Shown piece by piece: positions 31,572 to 62,016 of a DNA stretch of 62,227 nt. The position numbers and the translations under genes were made by a program. How positions within the stretch are numbered: the stretch's first letter is position 1; each line of letters opens with the position of its first letter. The notes under the pieces are model-generated. The model made no database searches and was not told the DNA's origin. It saw only the letters and a list, made by a program, of their open reading frames with translations. Location of the stretch: NCBI GenBank assembly GCA_030145005.1, contig JAQYWJ010000001.1, forward strand, positions 1 through 62,227. The letters are read 5' to 3'. The DNA comes from Desulfobacter sp. Lineage in GTDB: Bacteria; Desulfobacterota; Desulfobacteria; Desulfobacterales; Desulfobacteraceae.

Positions 31572-31609
31572 ATGCCCTCATTGTTATTACAGTAAAAATG
31601 CGGTTGCGG

Positions 31610-33646: not shown

Positions 33647-33660
33647 AACAGATAATCATC

Positions 33661-35262: not shown

Positions 35263-35264
35263 AA

Positions 35265-37805
35265 TTATTCTCCTCGTACTATTTGCTCTTCCACCGCAAG
35301 CTTTACGTTAACCCCTGCAGGCCGTACTTTTTTGATGCCCTGCCACACGCGGTCGATAATGGCGGGATGAACAGTTTCATCCGCCGTTATTGTCTGTAAT
35401 CGGACAATCGCGGTAAACGTGCGTCTTCCCGACCATTCCAGCCAGACTTTCGCGGCGGGGGTGTAGGGGAACACGGTGCTGTCAAAGATTTGCTCCGGCG
35501 GTTCGGGTTCCGGGTCATTTTCCCCGTAACGCCCGGGATAAGGTGCGTCCTGGTCGCGGGGCGGGAATAAACGGTCTTCACGTGTCCCCCCTGGCCGATC
35601 TACCGATACAGGTTCCAGGTCGGGAGGTGGTAATAGACGACCCTCACGTGTCCACCATGGCCGGCTTACCGATACAGGCATGGTCTCCGTTTCCAAAGAA
35701 AGGTAGCGCCAGGTGGACTCTCCCACGGGAATGCGCGGCACCGCGGGTAAGCCGCCATCGACAATGCGTTCGTTTGTCGGTTTGACGCGCATACGCAGAT
35801 CGTTAATGGCGACAGGGCCGGAGCTCTTAAATGCTTCACTCTCCCATGTCCCTGACTCTGCGGCGATGGAGTCTGTCCATTGCACCACGTGTACAGGGTT
35901 TTCATTTTCACTGCGGGGACTGTCAGCATAAACAGTCCACTGGCGGGTAGTGCGATCGAAATATTGCCAACTCGATGAAGCGGGATGAAAGCGCCAGAAA
36001 TCCCTTGGTGCAGCGTCTTCGGTGAAATATACACTGTCAGCCCGACCTTGTGATACCCACCGTTGACTACCCGTTTGATACTGGGCAATATCGCGGCCAT
36101 CAAAACGAAACAAGCCGCGACTGGTGCAAAACCAGACCAGCCCCCGTGCGTCTTCCCGGATAGCATGCACTTCGCCATCGGCAAGGTCGGGATAGGCCTC
36201 CAACAGTGTTTTATAGGTCAGACCGTGTTCCGGACGTGCACGATAGCGGGCAAAGCCCTGTTGTGTGCCGATCCATAAGGAAGCATCGGGGCCAACATGA
36301 ATGCTCGTAACCGGCGGCAGATAAACTTCGTTCGCTTGCGGCAATTCACCCAGGATAAGAGGATTCCAGTCCTTAATCTGGTCGGATTCTTCTTCACCGC
36401 GATACCAATACCAATCTTCCGTGCCGGTTTGAAATTGAAATAACCCTGACTCACCGCCAAAATACATCACCCCATGCGGGTCTTGATGCAATGCGTAGAT
36501 TTCCGTGCCTGTCAAATCAGAGTCAGTCACACTATCGTCAGGGTTCAGCCACACAGCACCATTATTTGTGGCAACCCACACGGTGCCGTCTTTATCCTTC
36601 AAAATATCGTAAACCGCTTGCCCGGCCAGCGGTGCCACCGGTGTGGCTTCGAAAGGATCTCCATCGTCAGGAAAGAGGGGCATGCGCAGCAAGCTGTCGG
36701 CTGTGCCGATTAACAATGCCTGATCTTGTTCGAACAGGCAGTGAATAATGCCTAAACCAAGGCTACCCAACACCTGCGTCCAACGGCTGCCATCATAACG
36801 CCATAGTTCGCCGTTGCCGTTACTATGAGTGGCAACCCATAAAAAACGGTCTTGTGATTGATGCATCGTGGTCACCACGCCGGCCGGGGCACCGGCTGCC
36901 GTATCCCACGGTCCGGCTGCGGTGGGATCGGCGTCTGTGGTACCGGTAGGATCCGATCGTGCAGCCAGCACGGCCTTTCCCGAACCTAACCATGACTGGT
37001 AGGCAGGCTGCAATCGCAGTACATTTCCGTCGGCGATGGTGCCCTGGTAGCCAATGCCTGAACGGGGAAACTCACTGCCCGTGTGAAAGAGTTCCACTAC
37101 CGGATTTTCCGTGGCGTCCTGTTGATCCGGAATGGTGTTCACGCCTTCAATATACAAGGTCAGCGGCGCGGCTTCCAGGCCATCATTGACAAAACTCCAG
37201 CGCATCAATGGTCCTATCACATGCAGCTGCTGCCCATCTTTGCCCAACGGCGCGCCCCGTGCTTTAAACGTTCTTCTTACCGTCACCAGGGGTGCAAACT
37301 CTTCGATGGAAAAGGACCGTTCCCGTTGAATACGCGGCACCTCGGGCACTGGCGGCAATTCCGCTTCTACGATGGTACGCAATGCGTTCACTGTGCCAAG
37401 GCCATTGCGGTATAACTCAACATAGAGCCCCAGGCGCTCGCGGTATTCTTCCACCTTTTCTCTCAGCGGAAGGGGTTCCCGCCAGGGCGGCAATGCCATC
37501 AGCGCCCCCAGGCGCGCCAAATCAAATAAATAGGGAAATGCCTTGATGGTTTCGCGGTCAGCAGAATCATGAGCTTTTAAAAGATCAAGTTCCTGCTGCT
37601 TGCGATCGAGATTTAAGTACGCATCATATAACGCACTGTCGGCATAATTATACCAATGCGCCTGCATGACGTCATTCATATCCCGGCTTACATCATCCAG
37701 TATCTTACCCACTGATCTCAGGAATTCCGACACAAGACCGGTATCGTAAATTTCCGGCCGGTATAAGGACGGTAAATGCGATTTGAGTTGGTTGTATATA
37801 GGCAT
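35265..37805 (-). CDS. Baseplate wedge protein (P2 gpI/T4 gp7-like) with inserted beta-propeller
   Basis: N-terminal LPSLYRP...LYRNGLGTVNALR and C-terminal KKVRPAGV; internal DGTVWVATNNG, LWIGTQQG and VWFCTSRG propeller blades. Confidence 0.75.
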   Translation of the reverse strand: MPIYNQLKSHLPSLYRPEIYDTGLVSEFLRSVGKILDDVSRDMNDVMQAHWYNYADSALYDAYLNLDRKQQELDLLKAHDSADRETIKAFPYLFDLARLGALMALPPWREPLPLREKVEEYRERLGLYVELYRNGLGTVNALRTIVEAELPPVPEVPRIQRERSFSIEEFAPLVTVRRTFKARGAPLGKDGQQLHVIGPLMRWSFVNDGLEAAPLTLYIEGVNTIPDQQDATENPVVELFHTGSEFPRSGIGYQGTIADGNVLRLQPAYQSWLGSGKAVLAARSDPTGTTDADPTAAGPWDTAAGAPAGVVTTMHQSQDRFLWVATHSNGNGELWRYDGSRWTQVLGSLGLGIIHCLFEQDQALLIGTADSLLRMPLFPDDGDPFEATPVAPLAGQAVYDILKDKDGTVWVATNNGAVWLNPDDSVTDSDLTGTEIYALHQDPHGVMYFGGESGLFQFQTGTEDWYWYRGEEESDQIKDWNPLILGELPQANEVYLPPVTSIHVGPDASLWIGTQQGFARYRARPEHGLTYKTLLEAYPDLADGEVHAIREDARGLVWFCTSRGLFRFDGRDIAQYQTGSQRWVSQGRADSVYFTEDAAPRDFWRFHPASSSWQYFDRTTRQWTVYADSPRSENENPVHVVQWTDSIAAESGTWESEAFKSSGPVAINDLRMRVKPTNERIVDGGLPAVPRIPVGESTWRYLSLETETMPVSVSRPWWTREGRLLPPPDLEPVSVDRPGGTREDRLFPPRDQDAPYPGRYGENDPEPEPPEQIFDSTVFPYTPAAKVWLEWSGRRTFTAIVRLQTITADETVHPAIIDRVWQGIKKVRPAGVNVKLAVEEQIVRGE

Positions 37806-37807
37806 TG

Positions 37808-39610
37808 TCAGTTTACCGTATTAATTTCAACTGCGGCTAAAGACAGGCGTTCATACGCTGTCAGCTGATAATTGTCTGTTTCAGTAACAAGGGTTTGACT
37901 TAACCCGTTTTCCATGGTGAAAACAAACTGCACGACATAATCACCGATATCCCCCGGCGTAAGCCCTGTCGGGATGGGACCGGTCCACACGTTATCAATA
38001 ATGCCCTTCGGTTTGGCTAATGCTTCCGGCAGCGGCAGCACATATAGTAACTTGGAAAAATTCAATACTTGTTTTTCCGGATTATCCACTGCTTCCGTAT
38101 CATTCATGCCGTTGAGTGTGGTAATCATGATATTCAAGGCATTTTCAATTTGCGGCGGATCAGGCGGATCCTGGTCTTCCGGATGCGTAATCACCACACG
38201 CAATAACGTCGGCAGATTTGGATCAATGATCTCCAAAGCGCCTAATTGCGTGGTCTTGTTCGCTACACCTAATTGCCCTTTACCCAAGTCTTCTTCGCTG
38301 ATGAGTACGCCGTCAGCCTTTGCTTCCACAATTTGCATGTCCTGTACTTCATCAATACCGAGCACCAGTCCAATGATACGATTGACACTCCCCGGCTCAT
38401 TGACCGGCAGGCTGGAAAAATAATCGCTGATTTTTTCATGCACGGAGTCTTGTACTGCACGCAGGTCTTGTTCGAGTAAATCCGTGGATGTGACAATGCG
38501 CAGGCTCAAATCCACCTTTGTCGGCGCTTTAACACTCTCATCGAGAAAAACATTAACGCCCACGGGCCGTGAATCACGAATGGCTGTATTGATACGCCGG
38601 CTCAGTTCCGGCTCTAATTTATCAACATGCGGTATGACTTTGACTTGTCCGACTTTTATCTTGATTTGATTATCTTCCGTGTCAAACAAATCACGTTCCA
38701 CTTCTTCCACATCGGCCAATATCCCCTGTTTTGCCACGGCCTCTTTAATGGCGCCCAAAGTGGCGCGTTCACTACCGTGCAGAAAATTTTTCGCGCGGGT
38801 TTTCAATTCATCGTCTGTTTCATCCGCATTGGTGACCGCAGTAGGCGCCGGATTGGTGACACTCACGATACCGGTAATGGGTTTAGCTAATACGGTCAAT
38901 TCATCTGCGGCAACGCCCTGGGTGTTTTCTTCCACATCCCTGGCGATGACTCTTGCGGTGTTCTGACCGTCTCTGACAGTAACGGAAGCGGTGGTTTCAT
39001 ATTCCACATTACCGCCGACGGTCATGATCCTTGTGCCCGCGGGAATATAAATGGAACCATGGCTGCCCGGCGTACGGCTAAACTCTATCTCACCACTGAA
39101 ACGCCCTGCTTTGACACGTTGCGTACCCAACAAAGCCACCACATTGTCAAGTGCACTTCCCGAAGCGGTATCAATATAGGCCGATTTATAAACAGCTTCG
39201 AGCTGCGCATAAAGACGCGCAATTTCCAGACCCACCGATTCCGTCAGGGTGCGCAGCACACTGCCCACATGAATGTCGCTCAGGGTGCCGGTTGCGGATT
39301 CGGGCAAATAGTTAACATGAAACACAGTGCCTTTATCCGGTAATTGTGCGCCTTCTTTCATCCATTGCAGTTGGGCGCCATCCTCTGACAAAACATAGTC
39401 CGTATCTTTTACAAACGCATGCGATTGTCCGTTGCGGCTGCCGTAGACAGCAATAATGTCAGCGGCCGGCGATCGTTCCAGAGAATGAGCATAAGGAGGA
39501 TTTTGTGCACCCGCAGGGGGAAAAGGATGCTGCTCCGCACTCACACCTTTAACCACGGAAGTAAGTAGATTATCTATTACTTCTGCGTAGTTTCGTCTTC
39601 TAAAGCTCAT
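37808..39610 (-). CDS. Baseplate J-like (gp6) protein
   Basis: GSVLRTLTE, IDTASGSALDNVVALLG, VTNPAPT...ADETDDELKTRA and SRPVGV. Confidence 0.9.
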   Translation of the reverse strand: MSFRRRNYAEVIDNLLTSVVKGVSAEQHPFPPAGAQNPPYAHSLERSPAADIIAVYGSRNGQSHAFVKDTDYVLSEDGAQLQWMKEGAQLPDKGTVFHVNYLPESATGTLSDIHVGSVLRTLTESVGLEIARLYAQLEAVYKSAYIDTASGSALDNVVALLGTQRVKAGRFSGEIEFSRTPGSHGSIYIPAGTRIMTVGGNVEYETTASVTVRDGQNTARVIARDVEENTQGVAADELTVLAKPITGIVSVTNPAPTAVTNADETDDELKTRAKNFLHGSERATLGAIKEAVAKQGILADVEEVERDLFDTEDNQIKIKVGQVKVIPHVDKLEPELSRRINTAIRDSRPVGVNVFLDESVKAPTKVDLSLRIVTSTDLLEQDLRAVQDSVHEKISDYFSSLPVNEPGSVNRIIGLVLGIDEVQDMQIVEAKADGVLISEEDLGKGQLGVANKTTQLGALEIIDPNLPTLLRVVITHPEDQDPPDPPQIENALNIMITTLNGMNDTEAVDNPEKQVLNFSKLLYVLPLPEALAKPKGIIDNVWTGPIPTGLTPGDIGDYVVQFVFTMENGLSQTLVTETDNYQLTAYERLSLAAVEINTVN

Positions 39611-39612
39611 GG

Positions 39613-40068
39613 CTATAGTTCCAATGTTATAGGTCCGATAGTAACCGTTTGCGTTTCGCCCACAGGTAATAGCTGAAGACCGACATCGACACTCGAGTGT
39701 CTTTCCACTGCAGGGGTTACCGTTACATCCACGATCTCTTCTATGCGTGGTTCTCTTTGCAACGTTTCCAAAATATAAAGCCTGACTAAATTGCGCTTGG
39801 TTTCCGTATTCACTTGACCAATCAGTTCATGCAAACGTGATCCGTATTGCGGATGGCCCAATGGTGTTAACTCGCCCCGTGGGGTAAGCAAGCGCATAAT
39901 GATGGCCTGGGCGAGATTGTCGCGGCCACTGGTAACGGCTAAATCCAAGATCAACCCTTTGCCGCCCGGCCCCAACCGGCGTGTGGAACTTACGTTATAG
40001 ACCGGCCGTAATTCACGATGCATCAGATCCAAGCGCAGGTCTGTTAATAAATGTTGATCTTGAGCCAT
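39613..40068 (-). CDS. GPW/gp25 family baseplate wedge (sheath initiator)
   Basis: NLAQAIIMRLLTPRGEL..HPQYGSRLHELIG and EPRI; start placed at MAQDQ (40068) behind GAGG. Confidence 0.9.
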   Translation of the reverse strand: MAQDQHLLTDLRLDLMHRELRPVYNVSSTRRLGPGGKGLILDLAVTSGRDNLAQAIIMRLLTPRGELTPLGHPQYGSRLHELIGQVNTETKRNLVRLYILETLQREPRIEEIVDVTVTPAVERHSSVDVGLQLLPVGETQTVTIGPITLEL

Positions 40069-40072
40069 ACCA

Positions 40073-40468
40073 CTATCCTCCCACTGAGACGGTTCCCACA
40101 GCAATCACCGTTCCCACCGGCATATCAGCCGGATCATTACATGTCATAGCAGTATCACCATTCTTTGCCGCAGGTTTACCGTTAATCATCACGGCGCCGC
40201 TACCGGTTTGAATCGTCGCTTTGTTACTGGGGGGTGATTGAAAAGATCCCCCCTGGGGAATATGCGATGGTGTATTGCTCGCCTTGCTGCCTTGCACAGC
40301 AGCCGGCTGTCCTTCGATATTGACATCTTCACTTAATCCATCGTCAATTTGCCCGGTAAACGGATGGGGCAAGGGGGTCGGTACCGGCCCTCCCGGTGAA
40401 GGAATCATTACAATATGGGTATCGGTTCCCACAATCTGATCACCTTTTTTTGCTGCCGGCTGTCCCAT
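40073..40468 (-). CDS. PAAR domain spike-tip protein
   Basis: Three PAA-type repeats (QPAAKKGD, QPAAVQGS, KPAAKNGD) plus candidate His/Cys metal ligands. Confidence 0.95.
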   Translation of the reverse strand: MGQPAAKKGDQIVGTDTHIVMIPSPGGPVPTPLPHPFTGQIDDGLSEDVNIEGQPAAVQGSKASNTPSHIPQGGSFQSPPSNKATIQTGSGAVMINGKPAAKNGDTAMTCNDPADMPVGTVIAVGTVSVGG

Positions 40469-40530
40469 ATTTTACGTCCCGTTATCTTTATATATGAAAG
40501 TAAAAAAAATTTATTAAATTACTTTCATGT

Positions 40531-40579
40531 TTCGTTGTGGGTTGAGTCTGGGTGTTGATAGACCAGGTCAGCCCACGGC
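40531..40579. repeat. REP-like palindrome, copy A
   Basis: GTGGGTTGA..CTGG...CCAGGTCAGCCCAC hairpin; related inverted copy at 61963-62006. Confidence 0.55.
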
Positions 40580-40581
40580 TG

Positions 40582-41217
40582 TTAGTTCAAATTAATCACT
40601 GAGCCTTTGAGATTCATTTCACCGGAGGCTTCAATGTTAATACTTCCGCCGCCTTTCATATTAATATCCGCCTGACTTTCGATGGTTATGGCGCCATCCC
40701 GCGCTATGGCCACGCTGCCTTTACCGCCATCCACTTTGATTTCCACCACAGGATCATCGTCTTTAAGATTAAGCTCCAAACCATCACCCAGTTTTAAAAT
40801 CAGTTGGCGGTTGTCGCCGCTGTGCAGCTCGGCGTGTACCGCATCACTGTCGCCGGCGCCTAAGGGCAAATGCATAATGGCCTGGTTGTCATCATTGGCG
40901 GGCGGGCGGTCTTCATCATTGTAAAGCCGGCCGGTAATCACCGGTGCATTGATATCCCCGCCGATAAATTGAACCAGCACTAATTCACCGACGGCCGGAA
41001 TACTGGCGGTACCGATGTGTTGAGTGGCCACCGGCACGTGTTTCAACACAATACCGGAATCCCGCAGCGCCACTGTGCAGGCATAATTATCTTTGTCTGA
41101 ATCGTCGGCATGGGGATGCTGATCTTGAACCACAGCCAGTTCGGCGGTGCGCAGCCGGTTGACTTCCTCCTGCACAATGCGGCGTATCGTATCGAACAAA
41201 GTATGCGGCCCATTCAT
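40582..41217 (-). CDS. Baseplate spike (gpV/gp5 OB-fold + beta-helix)
   Basis: IPAVGELVLVQFIGGDINAPVITGRLYN; C-terminal INIEASGEMNLKGSVINLN. Confidence 0.92.
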   Translation of the reverse strand: MNGPHTLFDTIRRIVQEEVNRLRTAELAVVQDQHPHADDSDKDNYACTVALRDSGIVLKHVPVATQHIGTASIPAVGELVLVQFIGGDINAPVITGRLYNDEDRPPANDDNQAIMHLPLGAGDSDAVHAELHSGDNRQLILKLGDGLELNLKDDDPVVEIKVDGGKGSVAIARDGAITIESQADINMKGGGSINIEASGEMNLKGSVINLN

Positions 41218-42317
41218 GGCAATCCTCCCAATGTCCCGCTCCCACTACCTGCCTGCTTGAAGTGAATAAGACTGGTAAAGCCTTGTTGTTTGGAAAAACG
41301 GTGCATAACGTGACTGACAAAAAACTGACCGTTCATTTCTTCCGTGGGCGCATCGGTAATCTCGATAATACTACCGATGACAACAGCGGGTGCGCCGGGT
41401 GTGAGGATCCGGCCTGTTAAAGTCTGTGAACCCGTTCGACCGGCAACCCCATCCGCTGCAGCCTGGCAGGCATCACTGCTGCGCAAGGTTGCATCCTGGA
41501 TCAGTCGTGCCTTGCCGTCACCGGCTTCAGAAGTCACCGCATCCGGATTTTTGATTAACCAGCTCCAAGCCTCTTGTCCTTCAGCGCCGGCAGCACCTTC
41601 ACCGATGACGGTGACCGCAGTTGCTGATGAGTTATTTTGCTGAATCCGTAACTCAAGAATGTCGTCGGCATAACTGAATTTTTGTGCGGGCTGTCCCGAT
41701 TGTTCAGGGCCGAAGTATAATTTTCCTTCAGTCGTAAAATGGGTGATATAACCGGATTTCCTGGCCAGGCGATGGATATGTTCATAGGCATTGTAACGAT
41801 CATCAATTACATAAAAGGGAAAATCAATGCCCGGCTCAACCACATCCGTATCAACTTCTGCCTGGCTGCACAGGTCACTGACCAAGTCACCGGCTGCCTG
41901 CTGTTCATAACTTTGATTAATGCGTAATTGACTCAATGCGGCACCACCGTTTACCGCCGTGATGTGAACAAGATTCCGGGTGTCATAGTGCAGTTGATCA
42001 ATACGGCCGGTCATGACAATATCCATAGAACTGTCTGCAAACCCCAGTGCAATGGTTCCTTCATCATCAATGGCGACGGCAGGGGCCTGTTCATCATTGG
42101 CAATCATCAGTTTTGTTGTATCAACAGACGGCGCCAGGGATAAATTACAATTGACAGAAACCAGACTACGCTGCCAGGGATCGCCACTGCCACCGTTAAG
42201 CGCTGTAAGATCCGATGCAAGCCCTCCACCGGAAGATGCCGCAAAACCGATCTCGACTCCTGGTTTGCGGACCGTCGGTGGTGAATTATTGCCGCTGACA
42301 AGATCAGTTAATGTCAT
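41214..42317 (-). CDS. Baseplate hub (gp27/gpD-like)
   Basis: MTGRIDQ, HIHRLARKSGY...EGKLYFG and NGQFFVSHVMHRFSKQQGFTS; directly upstream of the spike gene. Confidence 0.85.
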   Translation of the reverse strand: MTLTDLVSGNNSPPTVRKPGVEIGFAASSGGGLASDLTALNGGSGDPWQRSLVSVNCNLSLAPSVDTTKLMIANDEQAPAVAIDDEGTIALGFADSSMDIVMTGRIDQLHYDTRNLVHITAVNGGAALSQLRINQSYEQQAAGDLVSDLCSQAEVDTDVVEPGIDFPFYVIDDRYNAYEHIHRLARKSGYITHFTTEGKLYFGPEQSGQPAQKFSYADDILELRIQQNNSSATAVTVIGEGAAGAEGQEAWSWLIKNPDAVTSEAGDGKARLIQDATLRSSDACQAAADGVAGRTGSQTLTGRILTPGAPAVVIGSIIEITDAPTEEMNGQFFVSHVMHRFSKQQGFTSLIHFKQAGSGSGTLGGLP

Positions 42318-42358
42318 AACGATTCCACGCTTTATTTGTTAATTTATCCATCTTTAAT

Positions 42359-45300
42359 TTACGCTTGTAATTCATCTAAAATATCCTGCAAGTGGCCGCT
42401 GTGCGCCGCGTAATTCTGTCCATAATTATTAAACTGGAATACAAAGTTGGTACTGCCATACAAACGTGAAGTCCGACCCAGCCAATTGAGCGCCTCTTCA
42501 AAGTCAGCGTTGGGGATATTGCTGGGAATCAGCATATTGTGGCCGTAAGTTCGGATATTCCGGTTGCTGTCATAGACATGCTCCAGCACTGAGTTATTTA
42601 ACATAAAACCTTTCCAGGTGTTTCGTACCGCATTCCCCCATGGTGTACCCGGCGCACCATCATATATTGGAATGACTACATCGGAGACAGGCTGGATAGC
42701 CGGCCAGTTCAACCGGTTCACGGTCGCACCGAACCAGATCGGGAACAGGTATTTGCCGGCATGGTTTGCTCTGATCCAGCGCGCAAGATTCTGAACGGCA
42801 GCGGTGGCATTCAAGCCGGCCACATTGTACCACTCCAGGTCAAAAGCAACGCCAATAAATGAATTATGGGCTCGGAAAGTATCAAAGACTTCCTGAACGA
42901 TGGCTTCGACATCCTCATCATGCCCAACATTTTTTAAACCCAGATTAATGGTAGCCCACATGTTGGCGGCATCCATCCGTGTCAGCAGGGCGTCGAGATT
43001 TGGATTTGGATCGACAAAATTGAATACGGGGTGACCATGCGGTTGTGCTGCATTCAGGTTTGTATCGTAAAATGCATTGGGCCGTGTTGCACCTGCCTGT
43101 GGCACGACAGTGACAATATCAGCGTAATCAAGGTGACTTGCCGTAAAATCATTAAAGACTGTCTGGTCGCCGTTTGCAGCTCTGATATCATTGATGTCAA
43201 ATTGATAGACGCCCGCCGGGAATCCAATGTCATAATCCCTGCGATCCACATGCAGTACATAACGCCGATCAACTGTTGTCGGGTCTGTGTTCAACATGAT
43301 TCTTTCAAATTGCATATGGCTGAAATGATTCCGTAAAGCCTGTGCAACAGCCGTGTCCGGCCACGGCAGCAGAATATCGGTTGCACCAATCCGGTTGGCT
43401 CTTGTATTAAATCGATTTCCGCCACTGCGATCGATATCAGCGGCATCGCCGAACATATGCCGGATCTGATTTATTCGATAGCCTGATTGACCATTGACTG
43501 TACGCAGGACATGGCAATCATTGATTTTATCCGGCGGTACAAAGCCGGTTCTGACAATAAATTCTTCATTGGCGCCGAATGCCGCCCGCAGTGCCTCCAT
43601 ACCAGTCAGAAATGTTCGTTTGGACAAGGGCATATAACGTAATACCTGCGGCGGATTATTACCGCTGAGCGTCTGTTCCTTCCAAAAAAACTGTTCAAGA
43701 TAGATATGTCCGGACAAGTCGGTGTAACTGCGTTCACCGGCACCGGGGAAACGGTAGAATTCATCCGGGGCCCGGTGTTGTGTCTGTGCAGCGGCGAGAT
43801 TGGCGCCTGCCAGGGGTTTATGAAACTCCAGTCCGGTTTCGTCAAATGTCGGATACGTACCGATCTCCCTGCGCAGATCACGGGTCGCCCGGTGCCAATC
43901 CGCCGTCAGGTCGGCAGTCTCGACATCACGCAAATAAGGTATGAGTGCGACGACACGAAAAATACGTCGTGTATCCCCCCAGGTTTCTTCTGTTCCATCA
44001 GCAAGTCTGATACGCAGTTGGCCGCCGTCGATTCGAACTCGCAGGCAATAACGGCGATGAACACCCGGTTCTACATCGTTGAACCGGAACCGCCTGCGCC
44101 AGGGCGCCGTCGCTTCACTCTGGGTGACATGAACAAAAACATGCTCCGGAATAATCAGATAATAATCCCTGCCGGCTGTTATCTCAGTATCCATTTTCGG
44201 ATCGAATTCACCGGGCCGAACACCGGGTCTGAGTATCTGCGCATCCGGACTATTCGCCAATGTAATGGTTTGCTGGTAAGAGGTTGGCTCTGTCGTATGT
44301 AAATAGGGCCGCCGATCAACATTCAGCGTTATCGGTGTACCGGCAAAATCCATGTCATTGTGTCTCGAATCCGGCCAGCGCAAAGTGAAATGAAGCATGC
44401 TTAATGGGCGTTCATCCGGCCGGACAATCCATAGATTCCCTGCCAACTCATCTCTCCAACCCAAGGTGCCTGGCGGGTTGGCATTATAAAGGGCTTCACT
44501 GGCGGGTCGAGTCGCTGCATTGCCTATCAGATTGATGTCAGCGTTATTTGCTCCGCCATGCGCCGCTGCGTAGTCAACCTGATACAATTGCACCATGAGC
44601 CGGCGGAATGCATAGTATTCAGGGGATACGACACAACCCGCAGAACTGCAGCCGACGCCGTTAGCGATACTGAAATGCAACCGTATCTGCGTTTTCCCGG
44701 GGCCGCCGTCAACAGGATTTGCCCCGTGTGCGGCTGAATCAGGTGTCACGGAATAATCGGTGTCATGATGCTCACGACCAAAGTAGAATCGGTTTTCACG
44801 AACGCCATCATAGGCTTCGCCATGATCTCTGATCAGAAAGCTGTAATTTCTAAAATCATTCGTTGAACGGCTACTGGCGAAATCATAACGCTGATTTCCC
44901 CTGATTGATGACAGGTTCTGACTCCCTCTGACATTGTGTCGCTTGCTGTACGTATTCCACCTGAACGGCCTCGTGCCGTGAACGGTACCGTCCTTAATGA
45001 TAAACAAGGCGCCGTCGAAATGATCATACCCTCTGACAGCGGCATGTGGACCACCATTCAAGTTATAATTCACAGCGGGTAACCGGCCGCTGAGGCCGGC
45101 GGGGATATGCCAGGCCGTCTGCCCGCCGTCCAGATCCGGTTCACCATCTATAGTAACGATATCATTGGCGTTATCAATATCAAGAATACGGTAAGTTTTA
45201 CCTGGACGAATCCGGTCATCAGGCAGGTAGATGGTGTCAAAGCGTTTGTTCACACGTGATAATTGATCAATCGTCCCGGCAGGAATGGGGGGAATATCAA

Positions 45301-48046
45301 GATGGATTCTGTCTTTGGCAACGGAAGCCATTAACCCGCGAAGGGTACCGCCCCTGTTAAGATCGATATGCCACTCAGATTGATTGTCAGCCAGATCCGG
45401 TGTGCCATTGAGCATCAGTGTGTCAGCTTCATTATCGAAACTGCTGATCAGGTATTCTTTATCAAGTCTTCCCCGATCGGCCTCAAGGACAATGCGATCG
45501 GTACCGGCAGTGAGGCGGCTGAGGTCGACGCCGCTGTCCAGTTTAATAATGCGACCTTCAGAAACAGCTGCGGTACCGGTTAACTGGGAGGTATCCCTGG
45601 CGCCAAAACCGTCAATAATGACCACATGCCAATCGCTGGTAAAATCGACACGTGTACCAGGCATGTCCGGCATGTTTGCACCGGTATCGCGCGGAATTAA
45701 TGGGCGCCACGGGTCATTAAAATTAAAATAGAATTCGGTAATGGCTTCCAGTTGAAATAAGTTTTGCCAGTCTTCATCATCAAACTCGAACAGGGCTGCA
45801 GTACTGTCTGCAGGGGCATGGCCGGAGCGTTTCAGCAGGCGGGCCTTCCACAAATCTTTCTGATTATTGCCTACAGTACGCCATTGCGCGGAACTCAGTC
45901 CATGGCTGCGCCGAATGTCATTTAATACCGACATGGGATAGAGCTGGTTTCGGGTGCCGGCAATCGCCTCGGCAGGTGTGAGTGCAGGATCTATGACCGG
46001 CCAGCGGACAGGGATCAACTCCAGTAACTGATCAACCGCAGATTGTCCTTCCGTGACAAATTCACGCATCCAGTTATAGCTGTGTGCCGGATCAATTTGC
46101 CCATGGTTGTTTATCACCGCAAAGCCAAGCTGCCTTTGTCCGGCAGGCGCATTTTGTGTGGATGCATTGGCAATAATATCGCCGGCTTCGATTTCCAGGG
46201 TGATCTGGCCGCGCACAAACAGCGCGGCCCGTTGATTTCGATTGAGGGTGCCGGAGCCTTCCGGCAGTGTTGCGGCATCTAGCTGGGATCCTAGCCTAGT
46301 TTCCAGGGAGGCCGTTTCGATATTCAGATAGGTGAAACCGGTAATATTGCCGAGCCCATTGGCGCGATCACGAAACCGGGCATTGTTGGCAAGATGTTCT
46401 GCAAGATGCAGATAGACGGTAACCGTTGCAGGCAGAGGCTCATCCGCTACCGGAACAGAGGCAACAGGCGGTGCGGGACCGCCCGCCACTGCCTCAATAG
46501 CAGGCGGGTTCATGGAGAGGATACCATCCGATGCGGCAATGACTTCACCGTTTTCAGTCGTTTTTACTGCTGCATGGGAATGGAAAGTGCCTCCGGTTTG
46601 TCCATAGGTATATTCCAACGTCCAGTCAGCGAGAGTAATAAACAACCTCAAGGGTTGGCGCATGATGACGGTGAAGGGATGCTCCAATAATGTGCTCTCG
46701 GCTATTCTGTCGGCAGATTCGGCCAGCACCGCTGTTAGCAGGACATCCTCATGTTCATGCGTGGCCGCTGTCGCCGTACCTGTAACAATAGCTTCTCTGA
46801 CAGGTGTCGCGGCAACTGCATCAACATCGGCATTGGCTGCACCCTCTGATGTTCTTATGTTCCAGGCAATATTATTTGGCAGGGGATCAGGTTGTACGAT
46901 TGCCCTGACCGTAGTTTCTTCACCAAGATCCAGAAACCTGGGGAACGGACTGCCATCAGCCAACTGTAATTGAATAGTGGCGACTGTTATGGAATGGTTA
47001 ATGCGTATATCCGGCGGTGTCAGGGTAGTGGTAAAGGTAAGTTGCAATTCTGCATCACCGGCCGCCGCACTTACGGCTGTCGTGTTGAGTGTGATTTGTG
47101 AAGCACTGACATCGGTACCGGCCGGAAAGCCGATTTTGTCAGCACCTTGTGTAATCTGCCAATTGATGGTCTGCAGCACGCCGGCAGGTGATAATTCCGC
47201 GCGCAGGACCAATGTTTTATTCAAGCCCAGAATATGGGACATTTCAGTATTGCCGGTTTCACCTGTCAGTATTGTTGCCCGGATAATGGACAGGGATTGA
47301 ACCGCCATCAGGGCGGGGCCTTCTTCAGGCTTGAAGAGTAAACAGACTTTTCGATCGCCCAATGCTTCACTGGCAAGTATGCCTTTCAGCCTGCTGTTCG
47401 TTGCATGCAAAGGGATATCTGCACTTGACGATTGGGCAGTGGATGCAGAGGTGGTTTCAGATCCTGATGCCGCTTCCGATTCAGGTTCAGGTTCAGGTAT
47501 CGGTAACACCTGTAGTGCTTCGGGTGTGGCGCTAAACCAGTAAAACTGTCCCGTTCCTCCAGGCTCGGTGTTTGCCGTTAAATTAATCTCGTCACCAGCC
47601 GGAATATAAGCGGGGACCGGGTCAGTCCCATTTTCCAGGCGGATATTTACCGAGGTATCGATGGGGCCGACCGTCAGTGGAAAACTCTTTTCCTTGTCGC
47701 CATTAACAATAATATCCAGATACAAATCCACTTCTTCACTGGGGGTTGCGGCGCCGGCAAAGATTTCATACACGCCTGTGGCATTTTCGGTGAGTGTTTT
47801 CGAGAACACTTCACTGCCGGCACTATCAAACCGGACCCTGGGTTGCTGGTTGTCGCTTGAGGCCCGGAATCGGATTTCAACCTCGCCATTTTCCAGCACC
47901 GGCTCCCATTCAACCTTGACGAGCAGATATGATGATGAATTTGCAGCAAACCGGTCTGCACACGCTACTGTGACATTGGCTTGCCAGCGGTCTGCCCAAC
48001 ACAGGGTTCCTCGCTTGACTTTTCCTGCGACAATTTCAAATGGCAT
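42359..48046 (-). CDS. Giant multidomain putative cell-wall-degrading effector (Ig-like; L,D-transpeptidase-like; M15 peptidase; glycosidase-like)
   Basis: 1895 aa; RLHFSIANGVGCSSAGCVV; EALRAAFG...HMFGDAADID...LHVDRR; IGVAFDLEWY. Confidence 0.65.
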   Translation of the reverse strand: MPFEIVAGKVKRGTLCWADRWQANVTVACADRFAANSSSYLLVKVEWEPVLENGEVEIRFRASSDNQQPRVRFDSAGSEVFSKTLTENATGVYEIFAGAATPSEEVDLYLDIIVNGDKEKSFPLTVGPIDTSVNIRLENGTDPVPAYIPAGDEINLTANTEPGGTGQFYWFSATPEALQVLPIPEPEPESEAASGSETTSASTAQSSSADIPLHATNSRLKGILASEALGDRKVCLLFKPEEGPALMAVQSLSIIRATILTGETGNTEMSHILGLNKTLVLRAELSPAGVLQTINWQITQGADKIGFPAGTDVSASQITLNTTAVSAAAGDAELQLTFTTTLTPPDIRINHSITVATIQLQLADGSPFPRFLDLGEETTVRAIVQPDPLPNNIAWNIRTSEGAANADVDAVAATPVREAIVTGTATAATHEHEDVLLTAVLAESADRIAESTLLEHPFTVIMRQPLRLFITLADWTLEYTYGQTGGTFHSHAAVKTTENGEVIAASDGILSMNPPAIEAVAGGPAPPVASVPVADEPLPATVTVYLHLAEHLANNARFRDRANGLGNITGFTYLNIETASLETRLGSQLDAATLPEGSGTLNRNQRAALFVRGQITLEIEAGDIIANASTQNAPAGQRQLGFAVINNHGQIDPAHSYNWMREFVTEGQSAVDQLLELIPVRWPVIDPALTPAEAIAGTRNQLYPMSVLNDIRRSHGLSSAQWRTVGNNQKDLWKARLLKRSGHAPADSTAALFEFDDEDWQNLFQLEAITEFYFNFNDPWRPLIPRDTGANMPDMPGTRVDFTSDWHVVIIDGFGARDTSQLTGTAAVSEGRIIKLDSGVDLSRLTAGTDRIVLEADRGRLDKEYLISSFDNEADTLMLNGTPDLADNQSEWHIDLNRGGTLRGLMASVAKDRIHLDIPPIPAGTIDQLSRVNKRFDTIYLPDDRIRPGKTYRILDIDNANDIVTIDGEPDLDGGQTAWHIPAGLSGRLPAVNYNLNGGPHAAVRGYDHFDGALFIIKDGTVHGTRPFRWNTYSKRHNVRGSQNLSSIRGNQRYDFASSRSTNDFRNYSFLIRDHGEAYDGVRENRFYFGREHHDTDYSVTPDSAAHGANPVDGGPGKTQIRLHFSIANGVGCSSAGCVVSPEYYAFRRLMVQLYQVDYAAAHGGANNADINLIGNAATRPASEALYNANPPGTLGWRDELAGNLWIVRPDERPLSMLHFTLRWPDSRHNDMDFAGTPITLNVDRRPYLHTTEPTSYQQTITLANSPDAQILRPGVRPGEFDPKMDTEITAGRDYYLIIPEHVFVHVTQSEATAPWRRRFRFNDVEPGVHRRYCLRVRIDGGQLRIRLADGTEETWGDTRRIFRVVALIPYLRDVETADLTADWHRATRDLRREIGTYPTFDETGLEFHKPLAGANLAAAQTQHRAPDEFYRFPGAGERSYTDLSGHIYLEQFFWKEQTLSGNNPPQVLRYMPLSKRTFLTGMEALRAAFGANEEFIVRTGFVPPDKINDCHVLRTVNGQSGYRINQIRHMFGDAADIDRSGGNRFNTRANRIGATDILLPWPDTAVAQALRNHFSHMQFERIMLNTDPTTVDRRYVLHVDRRDYDIGFPAGVYQFDINDIRAANGDQTVFNDFTASHLDYADIVTVVPQAGATRPNAFYDTNLNAAQPHGHPVFNFVDPNPNLDALLTRMDAANMWATINLGLKNVGHDEDVEAIVQEVFDTFRAHNSFIGVAFDLEWYNVAGLNATAAVQNLARWIRANHAGKYLFPIWFGATVNRLNWPAIQPVSDVVIPIYDGAPGTPWGNAVRNTWKGFMLNNSVLEHVYDSNRNIRTYGHNMLIPSNIPNADFEEALNWLGRTSRLYGSTNFVFQFNNYGQNYAAHSGHLQDILDELQA

Positions 48047-48077
48047 AGCTATTATTCATCTCTTAAATGTTATCCGT

Positions 48078-51000
48078 TTAAGTGATATTCACAGTAAAAG
48101 TTTTTTCCACAATCGCACCAAAATTATTTCCGGTGCCGGTCCATGTCTTACCAACCCAACGCAATTCATGCAGATAAAGTTTTTGTAAGGTTACTTCCAG
48201 ATTGTCATTTTTTGTCGGCGGAGAAAAAGTCGCATCCGTATCAAAATCGGGTTGATAAGAGATAAGCAATGTTTCTGCGGCTGCCGGCGTTGCGGCCGGA
48301 ACCGTACAGGTCAGGGGTATTTCTCCATCATTATCTGTTGCACGGTATAAGTCGGTTGCCGGCGGCGCTGATGGTGCATGTCGACCATGCAGGGTGTTCG
48401 GACCGGGAGCGGCATCCAGCGTATAGTGTCCGGGAGTGCCTGTCTGAACAGTAATTTTTATGTTGTAACCGGGCAAGGATTCACCTATAGCATTCTTGAC
48501 TTGTATGATCAGGGTCTTAGCGTTGCCGGAAGCAACATTGATCTGGTCGATTGCCGGACCGGCGGAGCCGCCTATTTGCTCTGAAACGGAAATAACGGGC
48601 ATAAGTTGATTGTTGACTTCAAAAATTGACTGAATGATTTGTGCTATGTCGGGATCTATTCCATAGGCACGGCTCAATACCTGCAACAGGTATTGTCGTG
48701 AGGCATTATTGTTTTGCTCACTGGTGGGTGATTCCGGAAAATCACGCAGGGCTTGACGGAATATATTACAAAAGAGCTGACTCTTATCACTCGACAGGTG
48801 GTTATTATGCCGATACCAAAAACAGCCGGCATCGGCAAACAGTAATTCCGGCTCGATCAGTGCATGATGCATTTGCCATAATGTATTGGCAAGGTAACCT
48901 TCATTTTGCATACCCTTTCCGGGATCATCAAATGTGGGTGCAGCGGCGCTTGTCGCACCGCCATACAGGTATTGAGGTACTATTGAGCCTGGAATGGGGT
49001 TTTTGTTGGCATCATACTGGACTGTACGAATGTCAGCTAATGTTCCCTTGCCACCGGACATCTTAAAACCGCGCAGCGGATTGATATTGCCGAATTCACA
49101 ACCGCTTCCCCAAAACATTTGATGATATTGCGCATAGGCCTCGGTAAAGGCAAGGTTAGGAGAAATGATGTCACGTCTTTGATGTGTCCCCCCCACCCTG
49201 GCATAAGGGATTTCCGGGTGACATGAATAATCAAAAATCCAATGGGCCATTTCATGGGCAATGGTTGAGTCGTCCCAGGCATCATGACTACGGCCGCTTG
49301 GATCCTCTCCTAGATTAATAGTATCGGCTCCCCATCCGTGTGAACTACCTCGTGTGGAGCGCATATTGAAATAGAGTTCGAGGTCTTTATCTTCCCAGCG
49401 ATGGCCGGCATCATCTTCACGGGTGATATGTCTTAACCAATGTTGCGCCTGGCGAACCACTTTCAGAACGTTTGTTGCGGAATGCATTTTTTCAACATGG
49501 TTAAAGTAATGTCGCTTGTCATACCTGTCTTCGGAATAGTCATCAGACGGGTTGGTTTCGATCTCACTGACTGAATTATCAGGGCCTGCTGATATACGCA
49601 GACCGAGTTCATCCCGCCAATCTTCATCGGCCTCGCAGCAGATTGAAATATCCGGCAGTGCTTCACCCAAATCAAACAGATTGGCATGGAAATCGGTGTG
49701 GATACGTAACAGGCGGACTTGATTATGGGCGGTATCGCTGACAATAAGCAGACCATGAGAGTTGAGCACGGCATTCGATGGATTATCGAGCCTTATTAAC
49801 CGGGATAATTCAGTGTCGTAAGTACGGTGGTGAATGATAGCGCCGGAACTCGTATGACCTGTCACTTGTTGCCTGACAAAGTTCATAAAATCCCAATAGG
49901 CAAGCACGGAACCGGTTTGATCCATCAGCAGGATTCGGTTATTCCCCCTGTCTGTTACCAGCAGTTCAATAACGGTAGTGTTTTGAAATTTATTTTCTAC
50001 AATCGAAATACCGGAAGGGGCAGCGAACGCCAGGCTTGCATTTGTGGGCGTTATCTCACGTAGATAATTATCCTCGTCATCATACTTGAGGATACGATTT
50101 TTTCCGGTATCAGCGACATAAAGATAGCCGGCAGAGTCTGAAGTCACATCTTCAGGGTTGCTGAGTGAGTCACCAGGAGCCGCTTCAATCAGATGACTTA
50201 TCCCGCCATGAGCATCAATTCGCTTGATGCGGTCGTTCCCTTGCTCAGCAACATAGAGGGCGCTACCACTTTCACGACTGACATATTCAATACCTCGTGG
50301 GTTATTAAACTCGTTATCATGTATCCCCCCTTCACCCCATTTGCTGACAAAAGTGCCACTCAGGTCGAACTCCTGGATACGGTTGTTGTTTGTGTCCGCG
50401 ACAAAAATCTTATCCGAGGCATTGTTGATAACCAGCCCTGCAGGGGAATCCATTTCACCATCCGCGCTACCCTGTGTTCCGCCACCCGTGGCTTGTAATG
50501 CCCCGGATGAGTCGAATTTTTGAAATCGATGACTGTTTTTATCTGCTACATAGATGTTATCGCTGTTATCGACAGACAGGCCTTGTGGTTCATTGAAGCC
50601 ACCCCATTTGAGAAGATAGCTGCCGGCGGGATCAAATTTTTTTACTTCATTTGAGGCAATGTCACTGTCACTGACATAAATATTATTGCTTGAGTCAATG
50701 GTAATCCCTATGGGTGAGTGTAATTGTTCACCAACAGGGCCGGACGTACCAAAAGAATCAATGTGCACCCCTGCGGAATCAAATTTTTGTACTCGATGAT
50801 TATTATGATCAACAACAAACACATTATCGCTACTGTCTATCGCTATACCTTTAGGTTCATCAAATTCCCCGTCCCGACGGCCACTGCCACCCCATTTGGT
50901 AATAGAAACACCACTGCTGTCAAACTTTTGAACTCTGTTGTTTCTTCCATCGCTTACATATATATTATCTGAACTATCAACAGCAACAGAGTGTGGCTGG

Positions 51001-53123
51001 TCGAATTCCCCTTGTCCTTTGCCTTGACGACCCCAGCTCATGATAAGTTCACCACTACTGTTCAGTTTCTGGATTCGATGGCTGGTTGTTTCCACGACAT
51101 AAAAATTTCCTGTTGAATCTGTCGCCAGGGTACCGGGTTGGTTTGACCATGTACTACCGATATCCTCCTGGTGGCTTAAATCACCGCCATAGCGGCGTAT
51201 GCGGTTATTAGCGGAGTCGGCAACGAATGTTGTCGCGCCATCGAAGCTGATACCAACGGGATTGTTGAACCCGTCCGCGGCAGGTGCGGCATCGGGATTC
51301 AATATGAAATCCGCGTTTGGGCGATAAACTTTTACCCTGTTATTACCTGAATCTGCGATCCACAAGGCATTGTCATGTTTGTTGTATGCCACATAGGCAG
51401 GGGCATACAGATAGTTATCAGAAAGGCGCGCTTGCCAGAGATCACCAACCTGGTCAGGTACATCACCATCATTTTTTACATTACCATTCGCAGCATAAAC
51501 CGTCCCGCGCAGTACCTTTCCATTTGCGTTATCACTGACATAGACCTCACCACGATTATCAACGGCAACACCGGCAGGAGCCAGGGTGTCCGGCCCCATG
51601 TTTGGTTGCCAATGACATAAATAATTGCCATTTGTACTATCAAGGCGCTGGATTCGGTTATTGGCAGATTCAGCAACATATAGATAGAGGTGCTTGGGAT
51701 CCAGGGCCAGGCCGAGAGGGGTGTCAAATTCCCGGTTGCCGTTACCACTACCGCCACCGGCCTTTTCCCAGTCGGCATCATGATCGTAGCCGGTGCCTGC
51801 AGCATTAACACGCCATTTAGAGACACGGTGCCAGCTCTTATCGGCAACATACAGGGAACGATTACGATCACTGCAGACGGCAACGGGTTCCCATAAGGCC
51901 TGGGCAACGGCATGGGCATCTGAGGCGCCACTCGCGCCGCTTGGAGCACCAAACTCGCTAAGGTAACTCCGACCAAAAACCGGAAAAACACTGCGCCTGA
52001 TGGAACGTGGGCCATTACCCGTGATTTCAAGACGCAGGACCTGGACGCGATGGTTACCGGTATCGGCAACGGCCAGCCATTCATTCTCATCCACTTCATG
52101 TCGCGGCACGACTGTCAGGTCTGTCGGGTCTTTAAACTGTAAATTACCGGAACCCCTTGAACCTATGCGCCGCCAATATTCATATTTACCGGATTCCCCA
52201 TCGTCATTCTCAAGGTGGAAAACGATAATCCTATCATTGCCTGTATCGGCGACATAGAGGTTACGGTATTGATCAACGGTCAGACCACCCGGAGAGTCAA
52301 AACCATAATTAATAGTTTCACAGAGATAACCATTCGGATAGAAACGGCGAATATCATTGCCGTCTATCATGAAGACAAAACCATGCAGGTCGGTTGTCAA
52401 AGGACCGGTTGTCTGAAAACTGCCTTGTCCCAAGCGGCCTGTCGGTGCTTCAGGTGGATCGATACAGGCCTTTGGCGACGCGGGTGGGGTTGGCCGATTC
52501 GTTTCCACGGTTGGCCATACATTGTGATAGGGATAGCGATCATCTTCGCCAATTGGGATGTATTTGTCGTCTGTGACGTCGGCACTATGGTCGTAACCGA
52601 TACCTGTTATTGTGTCATCAAAAAAAATGTCATTGTCGGACAGGTAAAAACGCAAGGTATGCTGCGGTATGGCAATAGGATTCCTGATATTAGAGGGGTC
52701 GAAGTCGGTATAGGATAGTTGCAACCTGCCGGACAGGCCGATGTAGATCTCGAGGGGGGCGTCGATATTAGTGTAATTAAGGATCCCGCCCAGGCGGCGT
52801 CTTACATAGTGTCGGGTTTCCCATTTGTCGGGTAAGGTGAACTGCTCGGTAGCAGGCGCTGAGGCAGGGATTATACGATTGGCTTCAGGCAGTGTTATGG
52901 TGAAGTAAGGGTTAAGATTATCAGCATCATCTTCATCGTAAGTTAATTCAACTGAAGCCAGGCCGTCAGCATCGGTGACATCATTCCCGGAGGAGATGTC
53001 CGGATCCCATAAAAACCGCTCATGTTCACAGAGGAGAGTGGCGTTAGGCACCGGGATCATTTCGCCACGACGCGTGTCGACGGTAAAGACCTTTACATAG
53101 ACCGTTGTGGTTGTAGTAGCCAT
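48078..53123 (-). CDS. Giant NHL-repeat beta-propeller protein with HEXXH metalloprotease domain
   Basis: 1681 aa; many FxxPxGIAVDxxxNIYVxDxxNxRVQKF repeats; TIAHEMAHW and AFTEAYA. Confidence 0.8.
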   Translation of the reverse strand: MATTTTTVYVKVFTVDTRRGEMIPVPNATLLCEHERFLWDPDISSGNDVTDADGLASVELTYDEDDADNLNPYFTITLPEANRIIPASAPATEQFTLPDKWETRHYVRRRLGGILNYTNIDAPLEIYIGLSGRLQLSYTDFDPSNIRNPIAIPQHTLRFYLSDNDIFFDDTITGIGYDHSADVTDDKYIPIGEDDRYPYHNVWPTVETNRPTPPASPKACIDPPEAPTGRLGQGSFQTTGPLTTDLHGFVFMIDGNDIRRFYPNGYLCETINYGFDSPGGLTVDQYRNLYVADTGNDRIIVFHLENDDGESGKYEYWRRIGSRGSGNLQFKDPTDLTVVPRHEVDENEWLAVADTGNHRVQVLRLEITGNGPRSIRRSVFPVFGRSYLSEFGAPSGASGASDAHAVAQALWEPVAVCSDRNRSLYVADKSWHRVSKWRVNAAGTGYDHDADWEKAGGGSGNGNREFDTPLGLALDPKHLYLYVAESANNRIQRLDSTNGNYLCHWQPNMGPDTLAPAGVAVDNRGEVYVSDNANGKVLRGTVYAANGNVKNDGDVPDQVGDLWQARLSDNYLYAPAYVAYNKHDNALWIADSGNNRVKVYRPNADFILNPDAAPAADGFNNPVGISFDGATTFVADSANNRIRRYGGDLSHQEDIGSTWSNQPGTLATDSTGNFYVVETTSHRIQKLNSSGELIMSWGRQGKGQGEFDQPHSVAVDSSDNIYVSDGRNNRVQKFDSSGVSITKWGGSGRRDGEFDEPKGIAIDSSDNVFVVDHNNHRVQKFDSAGVHIDSFGTSGPVGEQLHSPIGITIDSSNNIYVSDSDIASNEVKKFDPAGSYLLKWGGFNEPQGLSVDNSDNIYVADKNSHRFQKFDSSGALQATGGGTQGSADGEMDSPAGLVINNASDKIFVADTNNNRIQEFDLSGTFVSKWGEGGIHDNEFNNPRGIEYVSRESGSALYVAEQGNDRIKRIDAHGGISHLIEAAPGDSLSNPEDVTSDSAGYLYVADTGKNRILKYDDEDNYLREITPTNASLAFAAPSGISIVENKFQNTTVIELLVTDRGNNRILLMDQTGSVLAYWDFMNFVRQQVTGHTSSGAIIHHRTYDTELSRLIRLDNPSNAVLNSHGLLIVSDTAHNQVRLLRIHTDFHANLFDLGEALPDISICCEADEDWRDELGLRISAGPDNSVSEIETNPSDDYSEDRYDKRHYFNHVEKMHSATNVLKVVRQAQHWLRHITREDDAGHRWEDKDLELYFNMRSTRGSSHGWGADTINLGEDPSGRSHDAWDDSTIAHEMAHWIFDYSCHPEIPYARVGGTHQRRDIISPNLAFTEAYAQYHQMFWGSGCEFGNINPLRGFKMSGGKGTLADIRTVQYDANKNPIPGSIVPQYLYGGATSAAAPTFDDPGKGMQNEGYLANTLWQMHHALIEPELLFADAGCFWYRHNNHLSSDKSQLFCNIFRQALRDFPESPTSEQNNNASRQYLLQVLSRAYGIDPDIAQIIQSIFEVNNQLMPVISVSEQIGGSAGPAIDQINVASGNAKTLIIQVKNAIGESLPGYNIKITVQTGTPGHYTLDAAPGPNTLHGRHAPSAPPATDLYRATDNDGEIPLTCTVPAATPAAAETLLISYQPDFDTDATFSPPTKNDNLEVTLQKLYLHELRWVGKTWTGTGNNFGAIVEKTFTVNIT

Positions 53124-56551: not shown

Positions 56552-56569
56552 AAACTTATTCCTGTTTAT

Positions 56570-59457: not shown

Positions 59458-59470
59458 GTCCTAAGCCTCC

Positions 59471-62006: not shown

Positions 62007-62016
62007 AGTTGAGAGA

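Follow-up and report, generated by a model that had tools for sequence, protein, structure and literature searches.

The window analysed here, a stretch of 62,227 nt of Desulfobacter sp., carries a headless contractile-tail operon of 18 co-oriented genes with sheath, tube, hub, spike, PAAR and baseplate. The gene under study, P0001, lies directly before the hub gene, in a position referred to below as the slot. The features of the operon and its flanks are as follows.

29703..61680 (-), headless contractile-tail operon, 18 co-oriented genes
59471-60547 (-), sheath
58963-59457 (-), tube
58478-58963 (-), chaperone
53123..56551 (-), tape-measure-like helical protein in the variable block (phrog_305, E 2e-16)
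48078..53123 (-), NHL-propeller protein bearing a HEMAH metallopeptidase-like motif, next gene upstream of P0001, in the variable block
42359..48046 (-), whole gene P0001, 1895 aa, composed of head A, module B and module C
41214..42317 (-), baseplate hub, gp27-like, directly downstream of the P0001 gene (phrog_52, E 9e-9)
40582-41217 (-), gp5-OB
40073-40468 (-), PAAR
39613-40104 (-), gp25
37808-39610 (-), baseplate J
28661..28801 (+), left direct-repeat copy, 5' end of a cmoA-like gene
62078..62221 (+), right direct-repeat copy, continuing on contig C171 (1-170) as an internally deleted cmoA remnant

A first-pass annotation had placed the P0001 gene just before a hub gene, and the phrog_52 match confirms this position. 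The NHL-propeller protein (1681 aa, HEMAH at aa 1290) accompanies a head-bearing protein in genomes G000, G111, G809 and G810, and none was detected in the stretches of G461 and G518.

Judged by the genes alone, the operon resembles eCIS (Afp/PVC/MAC/AlgoCIS), tail lysins and R-tailocins in combining a headless contractile tail with PAAR and a wall hydrolase. In phage tails, a lysin gene lies beside the hub gene. The operon shares sheath, baseplate J, gp25, spike/PAAR and the lack of a capsid with canonical eCIS as collected in dbeCIS, and it passes the two-of-four rule of PMC8651086. It differs from eCIS in that there is no Pvc16_N match and in its separate hub and short spike genes and its tail chaperone. 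An Afp15 AAA+ ATPase is present in >85% of eCIS loci (PMC6899500), whereas the operon here has no AAA ATPase library match, and no ATPase-type Walker A ORF was found in G000, G111 or G809 apart from two chance matches in other frames or genes. No holin, endolysin or capsid gene was seen in the operon, no terminase among the ORFs scanned, and no immunity gene was evident. Since ATPase, holin and capsid genes were not seen, we describe the operon as a headless contractile tail lacking the Afp15 ATPase typical of canonical eCIS, to which the particle does not belong. A search for Afp16/DUF4255 gave no match, with an equally silent control in a genome that is 74% complete. A prophage remnant was considered and rejected, as the scanned ORFs contain neither capsid nor terminase and the operon is intact in two families.

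The direct repeat bracketing the operon measures 120-144 nt and corresponds to the cmoA 5' end; an intact cmoA-like gene lies on one side, and the deleted cmoA remnant followed by a cmoB-like gene on the other. Contigs of other strains diverge from the window at 29515. A close sheath was found in 0/24 other genomes of the genus (two weak matches at 22-27%), and a marker gene of the operon in 11/401 genomes of the order. No integrase was seen in the window or on C171. The repeat flanks, the strain divergence and the patchy occurrence fit a horizontally moved island, as which we interpret the operon, and the cmoA site looks like its insertion point. The window sequence is present in 20 listed runs from 9 studies, the labelled ones being sediment.

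Three smaller features of the operon were recorded. A short dispersed repeat occupies 40510-40585, in the gap between the PAAR and gp5 genes, and 61965-62050, upstream of the operon, with 68 and 23 genome matches of >=50 nt; because a contig of run X5 omits 40484-40581 and the PAAR/gp5 gap is missing in G111, it is probably a mobile miniature element. The 678-aa gene at 31610-33646 ends in a long heptad-like, fibre-like coiled-coil repeat. The 846-aa baseplate gene contains a 65-nt tandem duplication (35548-35678) and its product is 22 residues longer than in G111.

Predicted domains of P0001

The first-pass annotation had read an ORF of 1895 aa with three catalytic motifs, and translation of 42359-48046 (-) recovered the frame, with zero internal stops, and all of the motifs. 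The parts of the protein are the following.

47267..48046 (-), A1 head, aa 1-260, likely Ig-like, candidate particle-docking module
46667..47266 (-), A2, aa 261-460, two more weak repeats of the second half of A1 (A1 profile)
46031..46663 (-), M23/LytM fold, aa 462-672, probable pseudo-peptidase whose zinc ligands are not conserved
45092..45586 (-), pair of beta-barrel repeats interrupting the YkuD domain, aa ~821-985
44399..45091 (-), main body of the YkuD/Tlde1 fold, aa 986-1216, the structural match starting near aa 804
44683-44627, motif RLHFSIANGVGCSSAGCVV, aa 1122-1140, with His1124 at nt 44675-44677 and Cys1138 at nt 44633-44635
43952..44398 (-), beta domain C1, aa 1217-1365, for the most part modelled with confidence
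43232..43729 (-), M15-like zinc peptidase domain, aa ~1440-1605, with H1530-x6-D1537, H1599 and D1601
43597-43238, motifs EALRAAFG (aa 1484-1491), HMFGDAAD (1530-1537) and LHVDRR (1598-1603)
42359..43240 (-), glycosidase-type TIM barrel, aa ~1603-1895, with D1736-x-E1738
42856-42827, motif IGVAFDLEWY, aa 1731-1740

Five homologues besides P0001 cover its full length at 70-85% identity. Public run X3, possibly related to the source sample, contains an 11.1-kb contig that spans 42380-53512, shows 67 differences and is gap-free inside the P0001 gene. The fusion is therefore real, and an assembly chimera is ruled out. Contigs of RNA run X5 also cover the gene, although such contigs cannot show transcription or its level and DNA is possibly present; RNA run X20 covers the island barely. 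Searches of Pfam, PHROG, NCBIfam and PDB sequences named nothing in P0001 or in ten segments of it, profile searches of PDB sequences were empty, and phage records held no match to module B or module C.

According to the homologues, the natural parts of the protein are head A (1-460), module B (462-1216) and module C (1217-1895). Among 176 homologous proteins, 160 have parts of B only, one has head and B, 13 the M15-like part of C and two only the barrel. Stand-alone B proteins begin at the equivalent of residue 462 and finish at 1215, the head+C fusions P0011 and P0012 omit B exactly, and in P0037 module C stands behind a subtilase. Judged from sequence, the motifs of P0001 exceed chance, because the catalytic residues are kept across the aligned homologues.

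Module B was modelled with AlphaFold from an alignment of 101 sequences selected out of the 176 proteins and is predicted to be a compact 755-residue unit (pLDDT 88.9, pTM 0.86). In a fold search, residues ~804-1213 matched the YkuD family (Pgp2 Z 7.2, Tlde1a 6.7, Bd1075 6.6, Csd6 6.0; range 5.1-7.2, rmsd mostly 3-4, 101-163 residues aligned), with Z-scores that are middling by the tool's own scale in a list that this family nonetheless fills for that stretch. The catalytic pattern H-x(n)-[S/T]-x-G-C is present, and H1124 and G1137 are each kept in 101/101 aligned sequences, S1135 in 100/101 and C1138 in 99/101. The YkuD/Tlde1-like fold that had been suggested from the motif is thus borne out by predicted structure, fold search and conservation. 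The second His of the Ldt motif, [S/T]HGC, is Ala in 67/101 module-B sequences. Tlde1a requires the corresponding His and Cys for its toxicity (10.1101/2020.02.18.954545), and the second His of the Ldt motif matters in it (PMC9638812).

The module B model gave zero Foldseek matches at E <= 0.001, and P0001 matched neither the Tlde1 (PF10908) nor the YkuD (PF03734) family of Pfam. The best relative reached E 0.09 for Tlde1_dom (13.6 bits, below the cut-off of 30.1), and P0034, the best relative for YkuD, E 5e-4 (21.1 bits, below the cut-off of 23.4). Two other module-B proteins, P0086 and P0122, are fused to PG_binding_1 above the Pfam cut-off. Module B is a YkuD-fold family named by neither Pfam, NCBIfam nor PHROGs. 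It has the predicted fold and the His...S-x-G-C dyad in common with the Tlde1/Tae5 (DUF2778, PF10908) T6SS effectors, Pgp2, Csd6 and Bd1075. However, 13 residues separate His and Cys in P0001 and nine in Tlde1a (H121/C131), and the YkuD domain of P0001 is split by the beta-barrel inserts and packed with a LytM fold. Furthermore, Tlde1 is linked to the T6SS, whereas P0001 is linked to a tail particle with no evident immunity gene. The beta-barrel repeats inside the YkuD domain occur in one to several copies among the relatives and match phage tail-tip barrels weakly (lambda tail tip Z 5.9, 70 aligned).

The N-terminal part of module B resembles M23 peptidases and degenerate LytM factors such as EnvC, DipM and SpoIIQ in the predicted fold (Z 10.5-12.2; StM23 Z 12.2, rmsd 3.0, 123 aligned; EnvC LytM Z 10.8). 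In contrast to these, it has neither a conserved HxxxD nor a conserved HxH and is fused to a cysteine enzyme, and no export signal was seen. In the module-B alignment, the first zinc site has His in 16/55 and 18/57 sequences and no conserved Asp, and the HxH site reads R-Q-L-G; an active M23 peptidase was rejected for aa 462-672 on account of these lost ligands. EnvC-type factors likewise lack zinc ligands in their LytM domain. The interpretation of the first-pass annotation, with three peptidoglycan-type modules, is supported, for M15 at profile level, and this fourth, degenerate fold had been missed.

The model of module C, based on 15 sequences, is poor overall (pLDDT 54.9), with pLDDT <50 in the M15-like region and low confidence in the C-terminal third. 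The zinc ligands H1530-x6-D1537 and H1599 are kept in 13/13 M15-like sequences and D1736-x-E1738 in 14/14 barrel sequences, sets in which just 5-6 sequences are <65% identical to P0001. Compared with the M15_3 profile by hhalign, the region scored P 56-70% (pairwise E 1e-4 to 4e-5) with H-x6-D in register, and four control regions reached at most 1.8%. Atlas places it beside M15_3 clusters (0.91-0.92) on the basis of 159-169 features in common, slightly below the tool's usual mark. A putative M15-like zinc domain in module C thus has profile-level support; language-model and profile comparisons and the conserved ligands speak for the M15 site first read from the motifs, and the low pLDDT speaks against it. 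The likeness to Peptidase M15 (M15A/M15_3, MepK/YcbK type) extends over H-x6-D...H-x-D, with the differences that P0001 has long insertions and a displaced SGYR arginine: the S-G-Y-R arginine position is Val/Ile in 13/13 sequences, and an invariant arginine, R1524, belongs to a G-[YF]-R motif further on, six residues ahead of the His.

For the TIM barrel, Foldseek placed the GH18 chitinase Oschib2 on top (E 1.3e-4), the best-ranked matches being chitinases, while VIA returned Cwp19, GH5 and GH18 tied at Z 11.6-12.0 and a viral structure library gave mixed glycosidase barrels only. The barrel shares the D-x-E at the end of the predicted fourth strand and the Y-D of a Y/F-D-G motif two strands on with GH18-like barrels (class III chitinases/hevamine, SleL, SalCis20) and Cwp19, but lacks the first Asp of the GH18 DxDxE, and GH5 and Cwp19 match it equally. 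Comparison with a profile of the 10 GH18 matches did not reach significance (P 3.2%, E 0.014), and no GH25 member for a comparison occurred in 151 genomes. In the model, GH18 is therefore the best yet not a unique match; the glycosidase TIM barrel proposed for the C-terminal domain holds as a prediction, with GH18 as its candidate family. Concerning the mismatch of folds that the first-pass annotation had named as its refutation, YkuD and the TIM barrel emerged from structure prediction and fold search, and M15 has support from language-model features and profiles.

These losses bear on the possibility that P0001 is an adhesin or anchor, in which the LytM, barrel and TIM domains would bind glycans and the cysteine enzyme would tether the particle covalently, or in which the barrel would act on chitin. 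The missing LytM zinc ligands, M15 arginine and first Asp of DxDxE would be in line with binding, as would the resemblance of the beta-barrel inserts to tail-tip and tailspike domains and the chitinases at the top of the Foldseek list. However, three separate catalytic constellations are conserved, and the slot neighbours elsewhere are amidase- and M23-like, so that we give this explanation a slim probability and favour a wall-cutting enzyme.

A common head and an exchanged slot gene

The A1 head is common to proteins with other C-terminal payloads. The Ig-like repeats noted earlier at the N-terminus remain a lead, with Atlas matches of 0.82-0.87, under the mark of 0.9. In G111, which belongs to another family of the order, the same operon is found with 80-96% protein identity flanking a divergent block. 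Identity to the window is 96% for sheath, tube and PAAR, 94% for gp5 and 91% for baseplate J, compared with 50% for the tape-measure-like protein, 45% for the NHL protein, 20% for the slot protein and 57% for the hub in the divergent block; a 443-aa gene is also divergent (54%). The hub gene thus diverges in step with the slot gene. The slot protein of G111 has only the head in common with P0001, followed by PG_binding_1-like repeats (E 1e-4; 22.8 bits, cut-off 23).

A wall-related domain is encoded by the gene before the hub in 6/7 readable loci. The slot genes are the following.

G000 and G810: P0001 type
L059: head+C, preceded by an Amidase_3-like gene
G111: head with PG-binding repeats (below the Pfam cut-off)
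G461 and G518: helical protein with M23, without head (below the Pfam cut-off)

In related operons at L086 (5909-8833, -) and L090 (14892-17579, -), a helical, tape-measure-like protein with an M23-like end bearing HLH lies before the hub. The exception among the seven loci is G809 (Chloroflexia), with no wall-related gene before the hub; of its three head-bearing genes, two lie at the operon 3' end behind an Amidase_2 gene and one lies elsewhere. Because G809 carries three head genes away from the slot, the head protein appears to be an accessory rather than a core component. The head was found in front of at least four different payloads. At the level of the encoded proteins, the slot gene is exchanged between near-identical operons with the N-terminal head kept, and by the same comparison P0001 belongs, as one allele, to a polymorphic series with a common head.

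The head went undetected in a JGI metagenome scan, in 400 other genomes of the phylum and in 399/400 other genomes of the order. A 502-aa protein of G529 with a similar-looking start proved to be Nal1-like and not head-bearing. Comparison with 19 host SLT sequences (P 0.5% and 0.3%) lent no support to the lysozyme-like (SLT) look, judged by eye, of the C-termini of the G111 and L004 payloads. In G809 (L066, 5696-10766, -), the orphan head-bearing gene (470 aa) is followed by a 1225-aa protein without Pfam match, which by eye has a polymorphic-toxin look with a nuclease-like stretch.

Proposed role and occurrence of module B beyond tails

We propose that P0001 is a modular slot protein, probably a particle-borne, exchangeable enzyme that would cut the peptidoglycan of other bacteria, with its Ig-like head docking outside the tube; taken as a whole, we give this model an even chance. 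The head would dock the folded protein outside the baseplate or tip and not in the tube lumen, because the N-terminus lacks the hydrophilicity of PVC signals and module B is a compact 755-residue unit. The hydropathy sum of the N-terminal 35 residues is +5.8 in P0001 versus -36.9 in the PVC signal of Pdp1, and PVC signals are hydrophilic N-termini (PMC11297309). Complex prediction of hub and head scored 0.00, which speaks neither for nor against docking. Whereas eCIS payloads use a short signal or DUF4157, the P0001-type payload is polymorphic behind a folded head.

At the wall, the YkuD domain with His1124/Cys1138 is predicted to be a Tlde1-like L,D-carboxy/transpeptidase that would trim stem peptides or unlink them, the M15-like zinc site might cut stems or cross-links, the TIM barrel might cut glycan via Glu1738, and the zinc-less LytM fold could bind or position the wall. 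The wall would then be opened for the spike, or the cell would be lysed once the enzyme reaches the periplasm; the eCIS protein EAT10, a predicted wall hydrolase, is 10^4-fold more toxic in the periplasm (PMC8213781). By analogy, we propose that P0001 may combine the action of a Tlde1-type effector with that of a phage tail lysin, yet by score it lies outside every Pfam family.

The same enzymes and targets would be expected if P0001 were loaded unfolded into the lumen via its head and injected into the periplasm like PVC/Afp effectors. Afp18 is a large lumen cargo, and polymorphic payloads behind a common N-terminus, 3'-end paralogues and an orphan copy are the usual pattern of eCIS cargo. 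However, three operons have no Afp15-like ATPase, and the P0001 N-terminus is neither hydrophilic nor disordered as in PVC signals, the head being a ~250-residue beta domain. We consider lumen loading rather unlikely and retain docking outside the tube.

Module B alone forms a family of >150 clusters at 50% identity, found for the most part in an operon of its own, of DUF6603 type. At E <= 0.001, a representative search counted 217 proteins and gave the best 150 of them. Among 13 genome loci of B, two are of the tail operon type, nine lie directly before a giant gene (L002, L003, L005, L006, L007, L009, L010, L012 and L013, the DUF6603-type operon), one is at a contig edge and one is neither. 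The giant gene, of up to 3300+ aa, carries DUF6603 in 2/7 scanned cases, and a conserved gene of 1200-1600 aa lies upstream of B in five loci, so that the order is often the 1200-1600 aa gene, B and the giant gene. The hosts are myxobacteria, a cyanobacterium, Chloroflexota, Acidobacteriota, Rhodothermaceae and haloarchaea, mostly with no sheath detected; the window sheath, used as a single query, matched in 2/10 module-B genomes. Haloarchaea are without peptidoglycan, and two that carry module B retain His and Cys. Archaeal wall hydrolases killing bacteria have been reported (PMC12352652). Since B occurs in haloarchaea and in sheath-less operons, its role need not depend on a tail. The DUF6603-type operon is possibly an undescribed export or toxin system; no mention of DUF6603 was found in the literature searched.

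The retention of His and Cys in two haloarchaea also argues against P0001 being a self-lysin that opens the producer's wall to free the particles in place of a lysis cassette. Such a role would agree with an operon without visible holin/endolysin or evident immunity gene, and for SalCis20, a GH18-like SleL homologue, remodelling of the producer wall has been proposed (PMC13266070). However, none of the segments of P0001 exceeds the hydrophobicity threshold and a holin for its export was not found, and neither the swapping of payloads between near-identical operons nor several paralogues per genome would be required. We therefore regard self-lysis as quite unlikely and keep to an attack on other bacteria.

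Antibacterial eCIS toxins are known mostly from expression in E. coli, often without immunity genes (PMC8213781). Here, two near-identical particles differ in one block and a common head bears different wall-directed payloads, so that loading and target choice are directly testable; a folded docking head, if true, would be a new means by which particles of this kind carry large enzymes. Wall hydrolases near CIS loci (EAT10, PMC8213781; SalCis20, PMC13266070) and reconfigurable tape-measure effectors (PMC13277306) are already known, while the four-fold fusion, the common folded head and the unnamed YkuD family look new. Title and abstract searches found nothing on P0001, although the dbeCIS, eCIStem and EAT classifier tables and subscription papers may hold the lineage, of which the available parts of PMC12998442 and PMC8651086 contain no description. 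The Tlde1 preprint alone was found to join extracellular contractile injection with YkuD.

A more far-reaching reading, which we put forward tentatively and consider less probable than the role above, is that the operon represents an undescribed ATPase-less contractile-particle lineage traded horizontally among sediment and soil bacteria, in which interchangeable wall-destroying enzymes would all be docked through the folded Ig-like head. P0001 would be its most loaded allele, hitting stem, cross-link and glycan at once, the LytM fold might switch on victim amidases as EnvC does, and module B would be an unrecognised YkuD family common to a tail-independent DUF6603 export system reaching haloarchaea.

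Two further observations concern the DUF6603-type giants of the haloarchaea (L009, L012). The C-terminal half of the first operon gene (window 60583-61680) matches their C-terminus, and they also carry the beta-barrel repeat of module B. Both matches suggest that the tail operon and the DUF6603-type system draw on one domain pool.
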